Made by a program: the position numbers and the translations under genes. DNA of 49,850 nucleotides from Minisyncoccota bacterium (lineage in GTDB: Bacteria > Patescibacteriota > Minisyncoccia > Phycocordibacterales > UBA9973). The notes under the pieces were generated by a model, which did not search any database, was not told the origin of the DNA, and saw only the letters and a program-made list of their open reading frames with translations. The DNA lies in assembly GCA_035491955.1 (NCBI GenBank), contig DATJJU010000010.1, positions 1 through 49,850 on the forward strand. The letters run 5' to 3'. Within the stretch, counting starts at the first letter, position 1. Every line of letters begins with the position of its first letter. Shown one piece after another: positions 215-49,656 of the stretch.

Positions 215-1001
215 ACTTTTTTGTTTTTAGGTAGCTATATAATATATGCATTACTTTTTTTCTGCCAGACACTTTTACTGCAAAATCATATAAAGAATCT
301 TTATTACTCATGGCGACGCGTTCTATTGCGAACACGTCCGTTTTACTGTCATTGCCTAGGCTATCACGTACTGTAACAGCTGATAGGTAACCAGTATTTT
401 TTACCGCTTCAATTTCTCTGTCTGTATATTTGCCAAATGGATAGGAGAATGAAGGTATGGTTATGTGTAGTTCGTTTTCCAACATTTGTTTTGACTGACT
501 TAGTTCATCTTGCAGCTGCTCATTGGTTAGCATGGTTAAATCTGGATGTGTTTTAGAGTGGCTTCCTATGTCGTATCCGAGCCTTGCTACCTCTTTCAGT
601 TCCTGCCAATCTAAAAGAGGCTTATTTTTATTAAAAGAATCCCACTGACTGGTAGAACCTATCAGTTCAGTTGGAATAAAAATGCTGGCAGTGAAATTAT
701 TTTTTTTTAAAATAGGAACTGCAGCCTCTAAAAAATCTTTGTAGCCGTCATCGAATGTTATGACTATACATTTTCTATTATTTTTACTCTGGAGTATATG
801 CTCAACTGCTTGATCAAGTGATAGTACATTGAATTTTTTGCGCTTAAGCCAGTCCATTTGTTCTGTAAACATTTGAGGTGTTACAGACCAAGGATCTTGT
901 TTGTCGGTAGAGATACTGTGATACATCAGAACAGTAATTCTGTTGTTACACCACAGACGGTATGCAGTAGTTATTTTTCGAAATAGAGAGGCGGTATTCA
1001 T
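198..1001 (-). CDS. Polysaccharide deacetylase (NodB/PgaB-like)
   Basis: Motifs VLMYH, ITFDDGY, IGSHSKTH, FSYPFG. Confidence 0.92.
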   Translation of the reverse strand: MNTASLFRKITTAYRLWCNNRITVLMYHSISTDKQDPWSVTPQMFTEQMDWLKRKKFNVLSLDQAVEHILQSKNNRKCIVITFDDGYKDFLEAAVPILKKNNFTASIFIPTELIGSTSQWDSFNKNKPLLDWQELKEVARLGYDIGSHSKTHPDLTMLTNEQLQDELSQSKQMLENELHITIPSFSYPFGKYTDREIEAVKNTGYLSAVTVRDSLGNDSKTDVFAIERVAMSNKDSLYDFAVKVSGRKKVMHILYSYLKTKKYEPVA

Positions 1002-8600: not shown

Positions 8601-9121
8601 CTCCGAGCCTATGATTTTTATTCATAAAAACGCAGAAAAACCGGCGGTATAGCCAAGTATTTTGCTTGTCTCCGCCGCAGGGCGGTTTTTTAGTCTAAAG
8701 ATCAAAGGTTCGTTTTTTGAAAAATACATCCTGTCCTCTAGTTGTGTCCATCTAATTGATGCGCACGGCAGGTAATAGAGAGACAGAATTTTTTGTTATT
8801 ACGGAGCGGTCCGAAATAATAAAGAAAGAGAACATCGTATCTATTTAAAGCGTAGATACGAATTATGATTTCTAGATTTCCTAATAGGAAATTAAGAGCA
8901 TATGGTGGATGCCTAGGTTCTACATGGCGATGAAAGACGCGAGAGGCGGCGATACGCTTCGGGGAGGTGCCTCTAACCTTCGATCCGGAGATTTCTGAAT
9001 GGGGAAACCCTATTGAGCAAACCTCAATAATCTACTCGCATAAGACGAGTGGAAGCGCACCCCGGGAAGTGAAACATCTCAGTACCGGGAGGAAAAGAAA
9101 AAAATGCAACGTAGTTGCGAT

Positions 9122-9163
<42 letters not shown>

Positions 9164-9387
9164 TCTGTCTTCGGATAGGGGTGTTGTAGGGCAGTAATGT
9201 CGTTTTACGAGAAGAGTTACAAAGTATATGTATAGAAAAAGTTGTTGGAAACCAACACCATAGTAGGTGATAGTCCTGTATTCGAAATATATATACCTCT
9301 TTTATTACTGTTCCTGAGTACTTCAAGACACGAATAGCTTGGAGGAATCCGCCAGAACTAACTGGTAAGGCTAAATACATTGTAGAA

Positions 9388-9428
<41 letters not shown>

Positions 9429-10006
9429 GTCCGATAGGACAGTGAAATAGTACTGAAACCATATGCTTACAAGGAGTCGGAGCGGGTATTTATATCCGTC
9501 ACGGCGTGCCTATTGAAGAATGAGCCAACGAGTTTATGTGTGCGGCTTGGCTAAGGGCCAAAGGTCCGGAGTCGCAGGGAAACCAAGTGTTAATAGCGCG
9601 TAATTGGTCGTACACATAAGACCCGAAGCCAGGTGAGCTACCCATGAGCAGGGTGAAGTGTTGAGAAATCAGCATGGAGGCCCGAACCGGTATGTCGTAC
9701 AACGCATTCGGATGACTTGTGGGTTGGAGTGAAAAGCTAATCGAACCTGGTAATAGCTGGTTCTCTCCGAAATAGCTTTAGGGTTAGCGTCAAATGATCC
9801 CATTGGGGGTAGAGCACTGGAAGGTTTCGACAGGGAGCAATCTCGCGACGCCTATCAAACTCCGAATACCAATTGGTTATAATTTGGCAGTTAGACTACG
9901 GGGGCTAAGCTCCGTTAGTCAAAAGGGAAACAGCCCAGATCTCTAAATAAGGTCCCAAAATATACACTCAGTGCATCTTAAGGAGGTAAGATTTCTTCGA
10001 CAATGC

Positions 10007-10038
<32 letters not shown>

Positions 10039-10835
10039 GAAAGCGTAACAGCTCACTCATCAAGAGATCTCGCGCCGCAGATAATCGGGGCTTAAGTGTA
10101 TTACCGAATTTGAGGGCTCATGCATTAGCATGAGCGGTAGGAGAGTATTCCACTCTAGCAGTGAAGCCAAAGACGTGAGTCATGGTGGAGCGTGTGGAAG
10201 TAAGAATGTTGGCACAAGTAACCGCAAGCAGGGTGAGATCCCCTGCCGCCGAAACACTAAGGTTTCCTGGGCAACGGTAATCGTCCCAGGGTTAGTCGGG
10301 TCCTAAGGCAATGGTGAAAACCGCAGTCGATGGACACAGGGTTAATATTCCCTGACTTCTGTAGTATTCGATGGAGTGACGAAGAGTAGTAGTATGAGCC
10401 GGTTATTGGATTCCGGTAGGCAACTCGCATGTGAAGGATAGGTAAATCCGTTCTTCTGACTTTAATGTCAACACCAGGGTTGTCTCGTGCAGAGGTACGC
10501 CGAAGCGAAGTCATGTGAGCACACTTCCGAGAAAAACTTCTAAGATTAGTACTATAGAACCCGTACCGTAAACCGACACAGGTAGTGAGGTCGAGTAGAC
10601 CAAGGCGAACGAGTAAGAGATCCCCAAGGAACTCGGCAAATAAGCAGCCGTAACTTCGGAATAAGGCTTCCCCTCAGCAATGGGGGGCGCAGCGAAAGTT
10701 TTCCTGGCAACTGTTTACCAAAAACACAGCTCCCTGCGAACTCGTAAGAGTATGTATAGGGGGTGACACCTGACCGATGCCAGAAGGTTAATTACGGGTG
10801 GTGCGATTATATCAAGCTGACTTGTACAAGCCCTG

Positions 10836-10870
<35 letters not shown>

Positions 10871-11124
10871 TCTACTATTGAAACTTATTTTCGATAGTAG
10901 AAGGACTGGGACTGTTATTCAGTCACGGTTGCATCAAAAAATGCAAAACAGTTTTTGTAAACAAATTAAAACAATAATCATTACATTTCTAGCTACCTAT
11001 CGCATAGTAATATGTGAATAGTCCAGACATGATCAACGAGAGACCAACGTCATGGGTCCCGGATCGTTCTTATAAATAAGAACGATCCGGGATTAAGATA
11101 GAGTCCTTCTGAGAGGAATAGAAG
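10871..11124 (+). mobile_element. 254-nt group I-like intron at 23S position L1931, ORF-less, apparently reduced
   Basis: Interrupts CCTAAGGT^AGCGAAATTCC; exon ends in U and intron ends in G; GAGAC and AAGATAGAGTCC (R/S-like), long P8-like hairpin, GAGA-loop P9. Confidence 0.8.
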
Positions 11125-11431
11125 AGCGAAATTCCTTGTCGGGTAAGTTCCGACGCGCACGAATGGTGTAATGACTGGGAAGCTGTCTCGGGGATTTGCT
11201 CGGTGAAAATACAGTACCGGTGAAGATGCCGGTTACCTGCAGTTAGACGAAAAGACCCCGGAAGCTTTACTATAGCTTGGTATTGGGTATGTTTGTGTAC
11301 TACGTAGCATAGGAAGGAGACTTTGAAGCGCCGATTTCGGTCCGCGTGGAGTCGTCAGTGAAATACTTCTTTGTACATGGGCATATTCTAACCCTGACGG
11401 AAAAAACGTTAGGGAACAGTGCCTGGTTGGT

Positions 11432-11472
<41 letters not shown>

Positions 11473-11725
11473 GTTCAAAGGTACGCTAGGCGCGAATGGA
11501 AACCGTGCCGATAGTGCAATGGCATAAGCGTGCTTGACTGTAAGACGGCCATGTCGAGCAGGTACGAAAGTAGAACATAGTGAACCGACAATTCGCATTA
11601 GATGCGGTTGAAGATTAACGGATAGAAGCTACTCCGGGGATAACAGGCTAGTTCCGCCTAAGAGTTCATATCGACGGCGGAGTTCGGCACCTCGATGTCG
11701 GCTCACCTTATCCCGGGGCTGGAGA

Positions 11726-11758
<33 letters not shown>

Positions 11759-11785
11759 AAGGTACGCGAGCTGGGTTCAGACCGT

Positions 11786-12298
11786 CCTGAAGCTGATCAT
11801 GTTTACATAATCGGCTGAAGGATCGTCTGAATCCCATGAGGAAAATTTTTTAATTATTTTTAATGAAATAAAAAATAATGTTAGGTCTTTTCGTCTAATA
11901 AAAGTAAAGCTTGCAAGTATTACCAAATATTTGTAAGAGAAAGATAGTATAAATGAAACCAATACTTATTACGGCGGTCTCATACAGCAATGTATGACGA
12001 CATGCTCAACTAATATCGGAGAAACCCGCCAACGGCGGGCAACACCGAGGGAAGTATGGTTTGTGAATTTCATAGAGGATTTATTCCTTAAAAAGTGTCT
12101 GTTAGCTCAATTTGGGTAGAGCAGTGGTTTTTGGTACCATTGATATGGGTTCGAGTCCTGTACAGGCAGCTTAGGCAAATTATTTAATTTGCCTCTTCTA
12201 TGAAATTCATAAACTAATACACCCGTAGAGACTGAATGTTGAGATTCCCTCTGGGAATAAGTTACAGTCCATTCCATACAGTAATGTGTGAAAAGAAG
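11786..12298 (+). mobile_element. 513-nt group I intron at 23S position L2593, no homing endonuclease, contains a tRNA
   Basis: Interrupts AGACCGT^CGTAAGACAGG; U before and terminal G. P3 CTCAAC/GTTGAG, P4-P5 TCGGAGAAACCCGCC..GGCGGGCAACACCGAG, P7 GACTG/CAGTC, P8, GTAA-loop P9. Confidence 0.93.
12096..12169 (+). tRNA. tRNA-Gln(UUG) nested in the L2593 intron
   Basis: Acceptor TGTCTGT/ACAGGCA plus G73; D-arm GCTC/GAGC; anticodon stem GTGGT/ACCAT with loop TT-TTG-GT; T-arm ATGGG-TTCGAGT-CCTGT; no encoded CCA. Confidence 0.85.
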
Positions 12299-12678
12299 CG
12301 TAAGACAGGTTGGTCTCCTATCTACTGCAGGCGTCGATGATTGAGGAAATTCGCTCCTAGTACGAGAGGACCGGAGTGAACGAACCTCTGGTGTACGGGC
12401 TCTAGCGCCAGCTGGACTGTCCGGTAGCTATGTTCGGAATGGATAACCACTGAAAGCATCTAAGTGGGAAGCCAGTTCCAAGATTAGTCATCATTTGAGG
12501 GCCGTGAGAGATGATCACGTTGATAGGCATTAAGTGGAAGCGTAGCAATGCGTTGAGCTGAGATGTACTAATTGCCCGACTCCTATTAGGAAATCTGGAA
12601 ATCATGCCCGTATTTAATACGGACCAGAAACAAAAAACAAAATTCAAAAAACGAAAATAAACAAGCTTGAACGCTTTG

Positions 12679-12788
12679 TCTTGGTGGTTTGTCGCGAGGG
12701 TCACACCTTTTCCCATTTCGAACAGAGAAGTTAAGCCTCGTAGAACCGATGATAGTCTCTTGTAGGCAAAAGTAGGTAGCTGCCAGGA
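12679..12788 (+). rRNA. rrf: 5S rRNA
   Basis: TCTTGGTGG...CACC..TCCCATTTCGAACA.AGAAGTTAAGC...AGTAGGTAGCTGCCAGGA with paired ends. Confidence 0.95.
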
Positions 12789-43257: not shown

Positions 43258-43442
43258 AGTGGTCGCTCTCAATTTTGGGAGGGGTTGTTTGAAAATTGTA
43301 TACAAATGCATGTCCGTCTATTTTTCCAAACTAGACGGACAAAAATCTAAACATAAATTAACACCAATTATATTCCCAGTAGCAAAAGAGAAAGTCATTT
43401 TTCTTTTGCTTCAGTCTAGTCTGAGGCTTCGGCCGAAGACTT

Positions 43443-45243
<1,801 letters not shown>

Positions 45244-45429
45244 ATTGAGATAGTTCTGAGGCATTGCCGAAGAATTGATACGATCGATACTCGCAAGAGA
45301 AAGGTTTTGGTAACTGACTTAATAGTTACTCCTTGCCGCTAGGTTATGCGGCGAAAATCCTATTGTGTGTATCTATAGAGCACGGAATAGGTAGACTGGA
45401 GCAAAAGAAAGGTGGCATAATGGTGTCAC

Positions 45430-49275: not shown

Positions 49276-49304
49276 GAAAAAACACCCTCTCGGGTGTTTT
49301 TTTC
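49276..49304. terminator. Bidirectional terminator between nrdA and rnpB
   Basis: AAAAAACACCC-TCTC-GGGTGTTTTTT. Confidence 0.8.
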
Positions 49305-49307
49305 ATA

Positions 49308-49656
49308 TTGTTGTACTCGTAAGCCGAATTCTGTTCTAGTGATCATTTATCTGTGATGGATGTTACCACCCACCTATAGCAGCACTCCCAATAAAGGGCA
49401 CGGCCTTGCACACAGGTAAGGATTTAGCCGTTTCATTCTAGGACTTCTCTTACCCCTTTATATTCCTAGCGCTAACCTGCTGAACTAATCCGAGTTTTTC
49501 AAGGGTACAGGTTATCCAACTTCTTTCGTTGTTGGCCGTTTCTGTTCGCACCTCGTATCTTGCAATAGACGGGCGTTACCCGCTACCCATACGAATTAAA
49601 TCGTTGTGTGTTCGGACTTTCCTCTGCATTGCTGCAGCGATCATTCGGTACAACAA
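49308..49656 (-). ncRNA. rnpB: RNase P RNA
   Basis: Minus strand GAGGAAAGTCCGAAC and ACAGAATTCGGCTTA; P1 TTGTTGTAC/GTACAACAA; TATACT just upstream. Confidence 0.95.

Follow-up and report, generated by a model that had tools for sequence, protein, structure and literature searches.

The cargo known from group I introns consists of genes for homing endonucleases or maturases, to which coral mitochondria add ordinary organelle genes. The Chlamydomonas I-CreI intron, which we take to reside at position 2593 of the 23S ribosomal RNA (rRNA), carries the gene for a LAGLIDADG homing endonuclease. In the Candidate Phyla Radiation (CPR), 23S position 2593 is a known insertion site, termed '23IS12', that often comes with LAGLIDADG genes, as described in the main text of PMC11270868. 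We analysed a stretch of 49,850 nucleotides (nt) from a Minisyncoccota bacterium (contig DATJJU010000010.1 of assembly GCA_035491955.1; hereafter the window, meaning this stretch at its full length), whose 23S rRNA gene contains at this very site a group I intron with a transfer RNA (tRNA) gene of the tRNA-Gln(UUG) type at the tip of its P6 helix. The presence of a tRNA-Gln gene in P6 of a 23S intron, originally noted in a preliminary description of the window, is confirmed, and the arrangement is recurrent but rare. The window intron resembles the LAGLIDADG introns at 2593 in its site, in its ribozyme class and in keeping its cargo in a helix-closed peripheral loop, but where those introns accommodate a protein gene it accommodates a tRNA gene. 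Our literature search turned up no description of tRNA genes residing within rRNA introns of bacteria. The main text of PMC11270868 does not use the term 'tRNA' at all, although such cases might be listed in its supplementary tables. A tRNA gene would add a new kind to the cargo known from group I introns, and a tRNA in a bacterial rRNA intron is probably indeed such a new type.

The nearest functional analogue is found in the spacer tRNAs of rRNA operons. There, tRNA-Ile and tRNA-Ala genes between 16S and 23S are co-transcribed with the rRNAs and freed by RNase P and RNase III-type processing, and tRNA output follows rRNA output. Spacer tRNAs lie between rRNA genes, whereas the tRNA described here lies within an intron of the 23S gene, where its release would interact with splicing. 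The same two players also meet in the reverse nesting, with a group I intron inside a tRNA gene, as in cyanobacterial tRNA-Leu, and this is so in Patescibacteria as well: a 2025 preprint by Nakagawa et al. is said to describe group I introns in their tRNA genes. For housekeeping cargo, the nearest precedent is the coral and corallimorph mitochondrial ND5 group I intron, whose P8 loop, according to a review (PMC3073962), accommodates as many as 15 mitochondrial genes of the ordinary kind. The likeness lies in a peripheral loop of a group I intron that holds housekeeping genes, expressed in the coral case from the intron transcript. However, the coral intron is organellar, spans ~18 kb, interrupts a protein gene and uses P8, while the case described here is bacterial and involves a single 74-nt tRNA in P6 of an intron in an rRNA gene.

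A tRNA-Gln gene at the tip of the P6 helix

Genomes and loci are labelled with G and L numbers: G000 is the genome of the window, a CPR genome of 674 kb in 17 contigs of which the window is contig C10, L001 is the window's intron, and all other numbers designate related genomes and loci. The host of the intron is a 23S rRNA gene of 3709 nt on the forward strand (8882-12590; Rfam RF02541, 2349 bits, model positions 1-2925). The intron spans 11786-12298 on the same strand (513 nt), as judged from its match to the group I intron model RF00028 and from exon flanks that are identical in relatives; it lacks an open reading frame (ORF) of its own and ends in G12298, the omega-G. Alignment with E. coli K-12 rrlH puts the 5' exon end at U2593 and the 3' exon start at C2594. 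A search of 11786-12298 with RF00028, as proposed in the preliminary description, returned a match at 11951-12291 over the full model (1-253) with 24.7 bits and an E value of 3.5e-4, which is significant though below the curated cut-off of 50; shorter related introns likewise remain below this cut-off, with 32.3-42.8 bits (E 3e-5 to 2e-8). The RF00028 alignment of the window intron places a 141-nt insertion exactly into the P6 loop.

This insertion is closed by a lengthened P6 helix, here called the clamp, whose 5' arm lies at 12054-12079 and whose 3' arm lies at 12194-12220, both on the forward strand and both assigned by a repeat search and by the minimum free energy (MFE) fold. The repeat search returned arms of 21 nt (12059-12079 and 12194-12214) that are 90% complementary and 114 nt apart, and in the MFE fold of the P6 insert ~26 positions are paired, from 12054 to 12220, with the acceptor, anticodon and T arms of the tRNA folded inside. 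The tRNA-Gln(UUG)-type gene itself occupies 12096-12169 on the forward strand and has a U1-A72 pair, G73, the anticodon loop UUUUGGU and a 4-nt variable loop, and its CCA end is not encoded. ARAGORN reports tRNA-Gln(ttg) at 12096-12170, with a cloverleaf whose acceptor stem has 7 bp, whose D-stem has 4 bp and whose anticodon and T-stems have 5 bp each, and Rfam RF00005 matches 12096-12169 with 54.4 bits, above the cut-off of 29, flagging no non-canonical pairs. By direct reading the tertiary bases are complete (U8, A14, G18 G19, A21, U33, G37, G53 U54 U55 C56 A58 C61). A hairpin formed by AGGCAAAUUA and UAAUUUGCCU follows directly 3' of the tRNA at 12173-12194 on the forward strand; its arms of 10 nt (12173-12182 and 12185-12194) are 100% complementary. 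The tRNA-Gln(UUG) in P6 of an L2593 group I intron is confirmed by ARAGORN and Rfam, with the site given by the E. coli alignment, and the preliminary description was equally right about a P6 stem of ~26 bp and the hairpin at 12173-12194, a helix of 21-26 bp and the fully complementary hairpin having been recovered.

Features of the intron core

The 5' strand of P1 is provided by the 5' exon end AGACCGU (11779-11785, forward strand), whose last U corresponds to E. coli U2593. Directly read, it pairs with GCGGUCU (11974-11980) through six Watson-Crick pairs and the U-G wobble at the splice site. The internal guide sequence, which comprises UUACG (P10) followed by GCGGUCU (P1) at 11969-11980 on the forward strand, is conserved across the alignment of the intron family, and its P10 portion faces the 3' exon start CGUAA (12299-12303, forward strand), the first base of which is E. 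coli C2594. Among 50 unique introns P10 covaries with the 3' exon, as UUACG/CGUAA (26, plus 2 with AUACG), UCACG/CGUGA (12) and UUGCG/CGCAA (5), where the rows of the last combination were read by eye from offset matches and 4 of the 50 rows are mis-anchored. The terminal G is present in all 50. Together, P1, the covariation of P10 and the terminal G make a good comparative case that the group I intron works, although the Rfam cut-off is not reached, and on these features the window intron looks splicing-competent.

The core strands on either side of P6 are conserved as well: CCGAGGGAA just 5' of P6 (12045-12053, forward strand), which served as a search anchor, and CCCGUAGAGACU 3' of P6 in the P7/P3 region (12222-12233, forward strand), which aligns to the RF00028 core. 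The whole intron folds with -153.4 kcal/mol (z = -6.27), and none of 100 shuffled sequences folds as well. An AT-rich stretch of ~185 nt separates the 5' splice site from the guide sequence and contains the block CGUCUGAAUCC (11824-11834, forward strand), which is nearly invariant in an alignment of 19 introns. On direct reading this block is complementary to GGGUUCAGAC in the 5' exon (11773-11782), a match that could represent an alternative or extended exon pairing apart from the P1 guide. Three ORFs of 41-61 amino acids (aa) overlap the intron and match no Pfam family at E <=0.1, a homing endonuclease included. Thus, the intron appears to be without visible means of homing.

The intron tRNA among the tRNAs of its host

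By Rfam bits the intron tRNA ranks 37th among the 39 tRNAs of the genome (range 48.4-76.1), with 54.4 bits versus 57.4 and 56.4 for the two tRNA-Gln genes of the host in the whole-genome search. It is not pseudogene-like. The features for which the preliminary description considered decay are seen on direct reading, as two G-U pairs in the T-stem and a D-loop of 10 nt, but the score is not at the level of a pseudogene. The same description had raised the possibility that this is the only tRNA-Gln(UUG) and that the intron might therefore be indispensable. Whole-genome ARAGORN and Rfam searches contradict this, revealing another Gln(UUG) gene at C1:26458-26529 in addition to a Gln(CUG) gene at C12:52417-52488, and since a second Gln(UUG) exists on C1, the idea of an indispensable intron fails.

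The U1-A72 pair, G73 and the 4-nt variable loop are common to the intron tRNA and both host tRNA-Gln genes, as well as to the host Gln genes of the related genome G036, so that U1-A72 and G73 were correctly taken as Gln features from the outset. The intron tRNA and the host Gln(UUG) have the same anticodon loop, and an encoded CCA is absent from the intron copy, as it is from 32 of the 39 host tRNA genes. Glutaminyl-tRNA is presumably made via GluRS and an amidotransferase in this organism, given that GatB is present in G000 and that a GlnRS C-domain was not found there. U1-A72 is the tRNA feature expected for the amidotransferase route.

The closest host tRNA to the intron copy is the Gln(UUG) on C1, with 72% identity, and the background identity between tRNA types has a median of 61% and a 95th percentile of 72%. 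A recent capture from the host was considered and rejected, both for the window intron (best host match 72%) and for the insert of L002, the intron of G036, whose tRNA shares 70% identity with its best match among the tRNAs of that genome, which is within the between-type background. That the cloverleaf and the identity bases are intact at 72% identity suggests that selection acts on the intron tRNA. A phage origin was likewise not indicated by a blastn search of 12040-12230 against 50,697 phage records; the six weak matches (~76% identity over ~75 nt) were to the tRNA-Lys of Salmonella phages. ARAGORN also reports unusual anticodons elsewhere in the host, namely a Ser-type ACU at C12:13973-14060(-), Ile UAU at C12:5387-5461(+) and Arg GCG at C2:838-910(+).

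Distribution of the intron and of its P6 cargo

A survey of the genus covered 51 genomes, 35 of which matched an intron-plus-flank query, and P6 was read at 32 loci (29 complete, 3 cut by contig ends). The intron sits at the same site in all 32, with P6 inserts of 9-281 nt, and ARAGORN detects a tRNA in three of these inserts: Gln(UUG) in L001, 'Val(CAC)' in L002 and a third in L009 (genome G014). From the order, 16 relatives were chosen among the matches listed by intron length or similarity of the 5' region, a biased sample; in all 16 an intron interrupts the same site, always without a tRNA inside it. A strict pattern composed of the P6 anchor, a T-loop and the P7 anchor, which would miss other spacings such as those of L081 and L075, gave no match in 400 other genomes of the order (224 genera). 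Scanning contigs with a 20-nt core pattern returned 21 loci, all with the intron and mostly duplicates of the genus genomes. A metagenome scan with a 20-nt helix-arm pattern returned 38 loci, among which five (L075, L079, L081, L089 and L090) are members of the L2593 intron family; the other 33, without partner arm and rRNA flanks, were rejected as chance matches. No further cassette was found in G000, where the helix-arm motif occurs only in the intron. As far as these searches reach, the tRNA-in-intron arrangement is rare and appears confined to the genus and a few metagenome relatives.

The P6 tip is a cargo site, with contents of 9-293 nt across the introns read. Near-identical helix arms recur in 11 introns (L001, L002, L007, L009, L026, L075, L079, L081, L089, L090 and L094), of which L094 belongs to another family of the order, and in the distant relatives L093 and L095 the helix is retained through paired changes, as seen by direct reading. 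Six of these 11 long-helix introns have a tRNA or tRNA-like insert (L001, L002, L009, L075, L079 and L081). This recurrence bears on the trivial explanation that the tRNA was joined to the intron by metagenome mis-assembly, an explanation to which a metagenome-type assembly of 17 contigs lends itself in principle. Yet the insert is flanked by two mutually fitting arms of one helix, and a helix with a tRNA-shaped insert is present in five other independent assemblies (L002/L052, L009/L053, L075, L079 and L081), which makes an artefact highly improbable.

A tree of the intron cores leaves 26 of 46 inner branches unresolved and firmly pairs only L002 with L009 (99/98) and L089 with L094 (100/90); it comprises 49 rows, L027 having been left out, and some of its P6 labels were mis-parsed by looser anchors. 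Other contents of the P6 tip were also observed. L007, L089 and L094 share a related non-tRNA insert in the long helix that starts GGAGAUA...UCC UAA(A/C/U)GAUCCU, and L026 (243 nt) and L090 (293 nt) contain other structured-looking non-tRNA inserts in theirs. In place of a tRNA, ORFs of 49-89 aa occur at the P6 tip of L006 (1244-1447, -), L024 (152-421, +), L027 (398-643, -) and L093 (318-467, -). One of the four has AGGAGG upstream and a hydrophobic tail; the four show no similarity to one another and match no Pfam family over the cut-off.

A common layout of the six tRNA-shaped inserts

All six inserts are in sense orientation and all have a homologous leader. A hairpin follows right after the discriminator base not only in L001 but also in L002, L009, L075, L079 and L081, with stem sequences that differ. 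The tRNA bodies are 53-76% identical to one another and score, besides the window copy, 64.2 (L079), 56.6 (L081) and 52.2 (L002) Rfam bits, while L009 and L075 fall below the cut-off.

Perhaps the insert is a neutral passenger, that is, a tRNA gene of maybe foreign source that came to lie in a tolerant loop and slowly decays there, with L001 as the least decayed copy. The damage is indeed graded over the six inserts, which include an acceptor mismatch, a D-loop insertion, odd loops and the two members below the Rfam cut-off; in addition, inserts of any length between 9 and 293 nt are tolerated at the P6 tip, the arrangement is rare, and the window's tRNA is redundant with a host gene. Such a history accounts less readily for stems and tertiary bases that are without defect in L001 at 72% identity to the nearest host tRNA, for the uniform sense orientation, or for a 3' hairpin that, as direct reading indicates, is maintained through changes on both of its sides across the inserts. 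We consider mere passage unlikely.

Possible roles of the intron tRNA

Near the tRNA a single promoter-like site was found, at 12239-12268 and thus downstream of it, which is no excess over the shuffle mean of 1.7, and no terminator-like site was found near it. Without such sites, co-transcription with the 23S rRNA is the default. G000 encodes a CCA-adding-type enzyme and RNase III, and the window itself contains an RNase P RNA gene on the reverse strand (49304-49656; RF00010, 98.9 bits, E 1.3e-31), which automatic annotation misses at the gathering threshold because its score is just under the cut-off of 100.

On these grounds the insert may be a used, accessory tRNA-Gln(UUG), carried as intron cargo at the tip of the P6 helix, whose product serves in decoding. 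Without a promoter of its own, the tRNA would be made only within pre-23S rRNA. RNase P would cut its 5' end, predictably at 12095/12096, and 3' trimming and the CCA-adding enzyme would complete it, as they would most host tRNAs. The helix of 21-26 bp would hold the two halves of the ribozyme together, such that splicing of the 23S rRNA would be unharmed whether the tRNA is excised before or after it. The released RNA would then be a second, non-essential tRNA-Gln, the supply of which would follow rRNA synthesis. That the Gln features of L001 are flawless at a distance of 72% identity from the host genes counts for decoding. We infer transcription, cleavage, charging and translational use from sequence features, and regard decoding by the intron tRNA as quite possible, if somewhat short of probable.

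Several observations weigh against this scenario. In the window's own genome, the intron tRNA is redundant with the host Gln(UUG) on C1. Its D-arm, UA GCUC AAUUUGGGUA GAGC, is not of the Glu/Gln type UC GUCU AAYGGU(U)A GGAC that is common to both host tRNA-Gln and both host tRNA-Glu and that the host Gln genes of G036 have as well; given the route via GluRS and the identity rules of that enzyme, this odd D-arm could prevent charging. No RNase Z over the cut-off was found in G000, the best match reaching 25 bits versus 293. In the MFE fold the acceptor stem is lengthened by an AAG/CUU pairing between leader and trailer, which may slow RNase P. In public sequencing data, 24 runs yielded at most 0.22 of the sampled words, and these were from the rRNA exon parts only, so that the intron was not seen in them. 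Moreover, L001 is the sole fully canonical insert of the six. L002 has a compressed anticodon arm, read as 'Val-CAC', and a C-C mismatch. L009 is a degenerate tRNA-like sequence under the Rfam cut-off with an abnormal anticodon arm, L075 has the anticodon UAU and a hairpin-forming D-loop insertion of ~60 nt, L079 combines a CUACAAA loop (anticodon read as ACA) with a U-U mismatch, and L081 has an 8-nt anticodon loop, CUACAAAA. As five of the six inserts are non-canonical, decoding is not what the family keeps, and since about half of the recurrent inserts have abnormal anticodon loops, a reading based purely on tRNA supply is weakened for the family. Redundancy, the non-Gln D-arm and the abnormal anticodon arms of most relatives therefore count against decoding. 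As to valine, G036 has Val(GAC) and Val(UAC) genes and no Val(CAC) other than that of L002, and G000 is without any Val(CAC).

The abnormal anticodon arms raise the alternative of a module shaped like a tRNA that serves in processing or folding and not as a decoder. In such a module the body of the tRNA (acceptor, T-arm and D-arm elbow) would be under selection and the anticodon free to drift. In one version, RNase P or other tRNA-binding enzymes would recognise the body, and the cut would break up the excised ribozyme, a very abundant RNA, so that it is turned over and cannot splice in reverse; in another, the L-shaped body would aid the folding of P4-P6. tRNA-like elements are familiar as sites of RNase P cutting, for example in mitochondrial tRNA punctuation, in mascRNA of MALAT1 and in viral tRNA-like ends. 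The members of the family with abnormal anticodon loops fit among these signals, but none of the latter is known from a bacterial ribozyme, and L001 resembles a full decoder rather than a mimic. Four of the six inserts reach 52-64 bits on the tRNA model and yet four of the six have non-standard anticodon arms, the shape is retained over long divergence (53-76% mutual identity, 70-72% to the best host tRNA), the layout of long helix, leader, tRNA body and 3' hairpin is conserved, and in both genomes checked (G000 and G036) the insert is not needed for decoding, all of which speaks for a module. Conversely, L001 retains the anticodon loop of tRNA-Gln without a flaw, together with the Gln identity bases, neither of which pure shape would need, and non-tRNA RNAs and small ORFs occupy the same site. 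Most introns, moreover, lack a tRNA (29/32 in the genus, 16/16 in the order among the matches listed, and no match of the strict pattern in 400 genomes), so that a module is not required for the intron to work. A role in shape alone strikes us as rather doubtful.

Returning to the used tRNA-Gln as the preferred reading, it is tempting to generalise it to the family, with the L2593 intron of this Paceibacteria lineage serving as an expression platform. The clamp helix would then be a cassette site at which tRNAs of several identities, tRNA-shaped RNAs with unusual (for example 8-nt) anticodon loops, other structured RNAs and small peptides are exchanged, RNase P would excise the tRNAs, the intron would splice in two pieces, and tRNAs would be made one-for-one with ribosomes. 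We put this generalisation forward tentatively, as a proposal that is on balance rather unlikely to hold in full. If it does hold, these would be the first tRNA genes expressed from within a bacterial rRNA intron, and the intron would be a natural split-ribozyme design. If the tRNA is released and used, be it in the window intron only, the supply of tRNA would be coupled to the making of ribosomes in organisms with very small genomes and unlinked rRNA genes, a selfish-looking intron would have gained a function useful to the host, and nature would have furnished a ribozyme that withstands cleavage into two pieces. If only the shape matters, the inserts would show that bacteria, too, have tRNA-like processing signals, here within a ribozyme. 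Counts of tRNA genes in CPR genomes may include intron-borne copies, and surveys of rRNA introns that consider only ORFs will miss RNA cargo.

The rRNA genes of the window and of its relatives

Rfam places the 5S rRNA at 12680-12788 and the 16S rRNA at 43442-45245. The 16S gene is thus ~30 kb away from the 23S/5S unit, and neither ARAGORN nor Rfam finds tRNAs flanking either of them, as the preliminary description had it when speaking of an unlinked rRNA unit without spacer tRNA. The 23S gene has a second insertion of 254 nt at 10871-11124, between E. coli positions 1931 and 1932, with a weak likeness to group I introns (RF00028, 20.1 bits, E 0.0045, at 10966-11121). The 16S gene measures 1804 nt against a model of 1533 positions, which implies ~270 nt of insertions; within it (43442-45245), no intron family was matched at E <=0.01, and two microRNA matches near 44683-44865 are at chance level. 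Among the relatives, G012 has two 5S rRNA matches downstream of its single 23S gene (L010: 1283-1392 and 2054-2165; 69.0 and 38.4 bits). In G014 (L009) a tRNA-Asp gene lies at 800-874(-), between 23S (980-1890) and 5S (608-717), and ordinary tRNA genes are also found just downstream of 23S at L004, L011, L105 and L106. Co-transcription of a tRNA with the 23S rRNA is therefore not foreign to this group.

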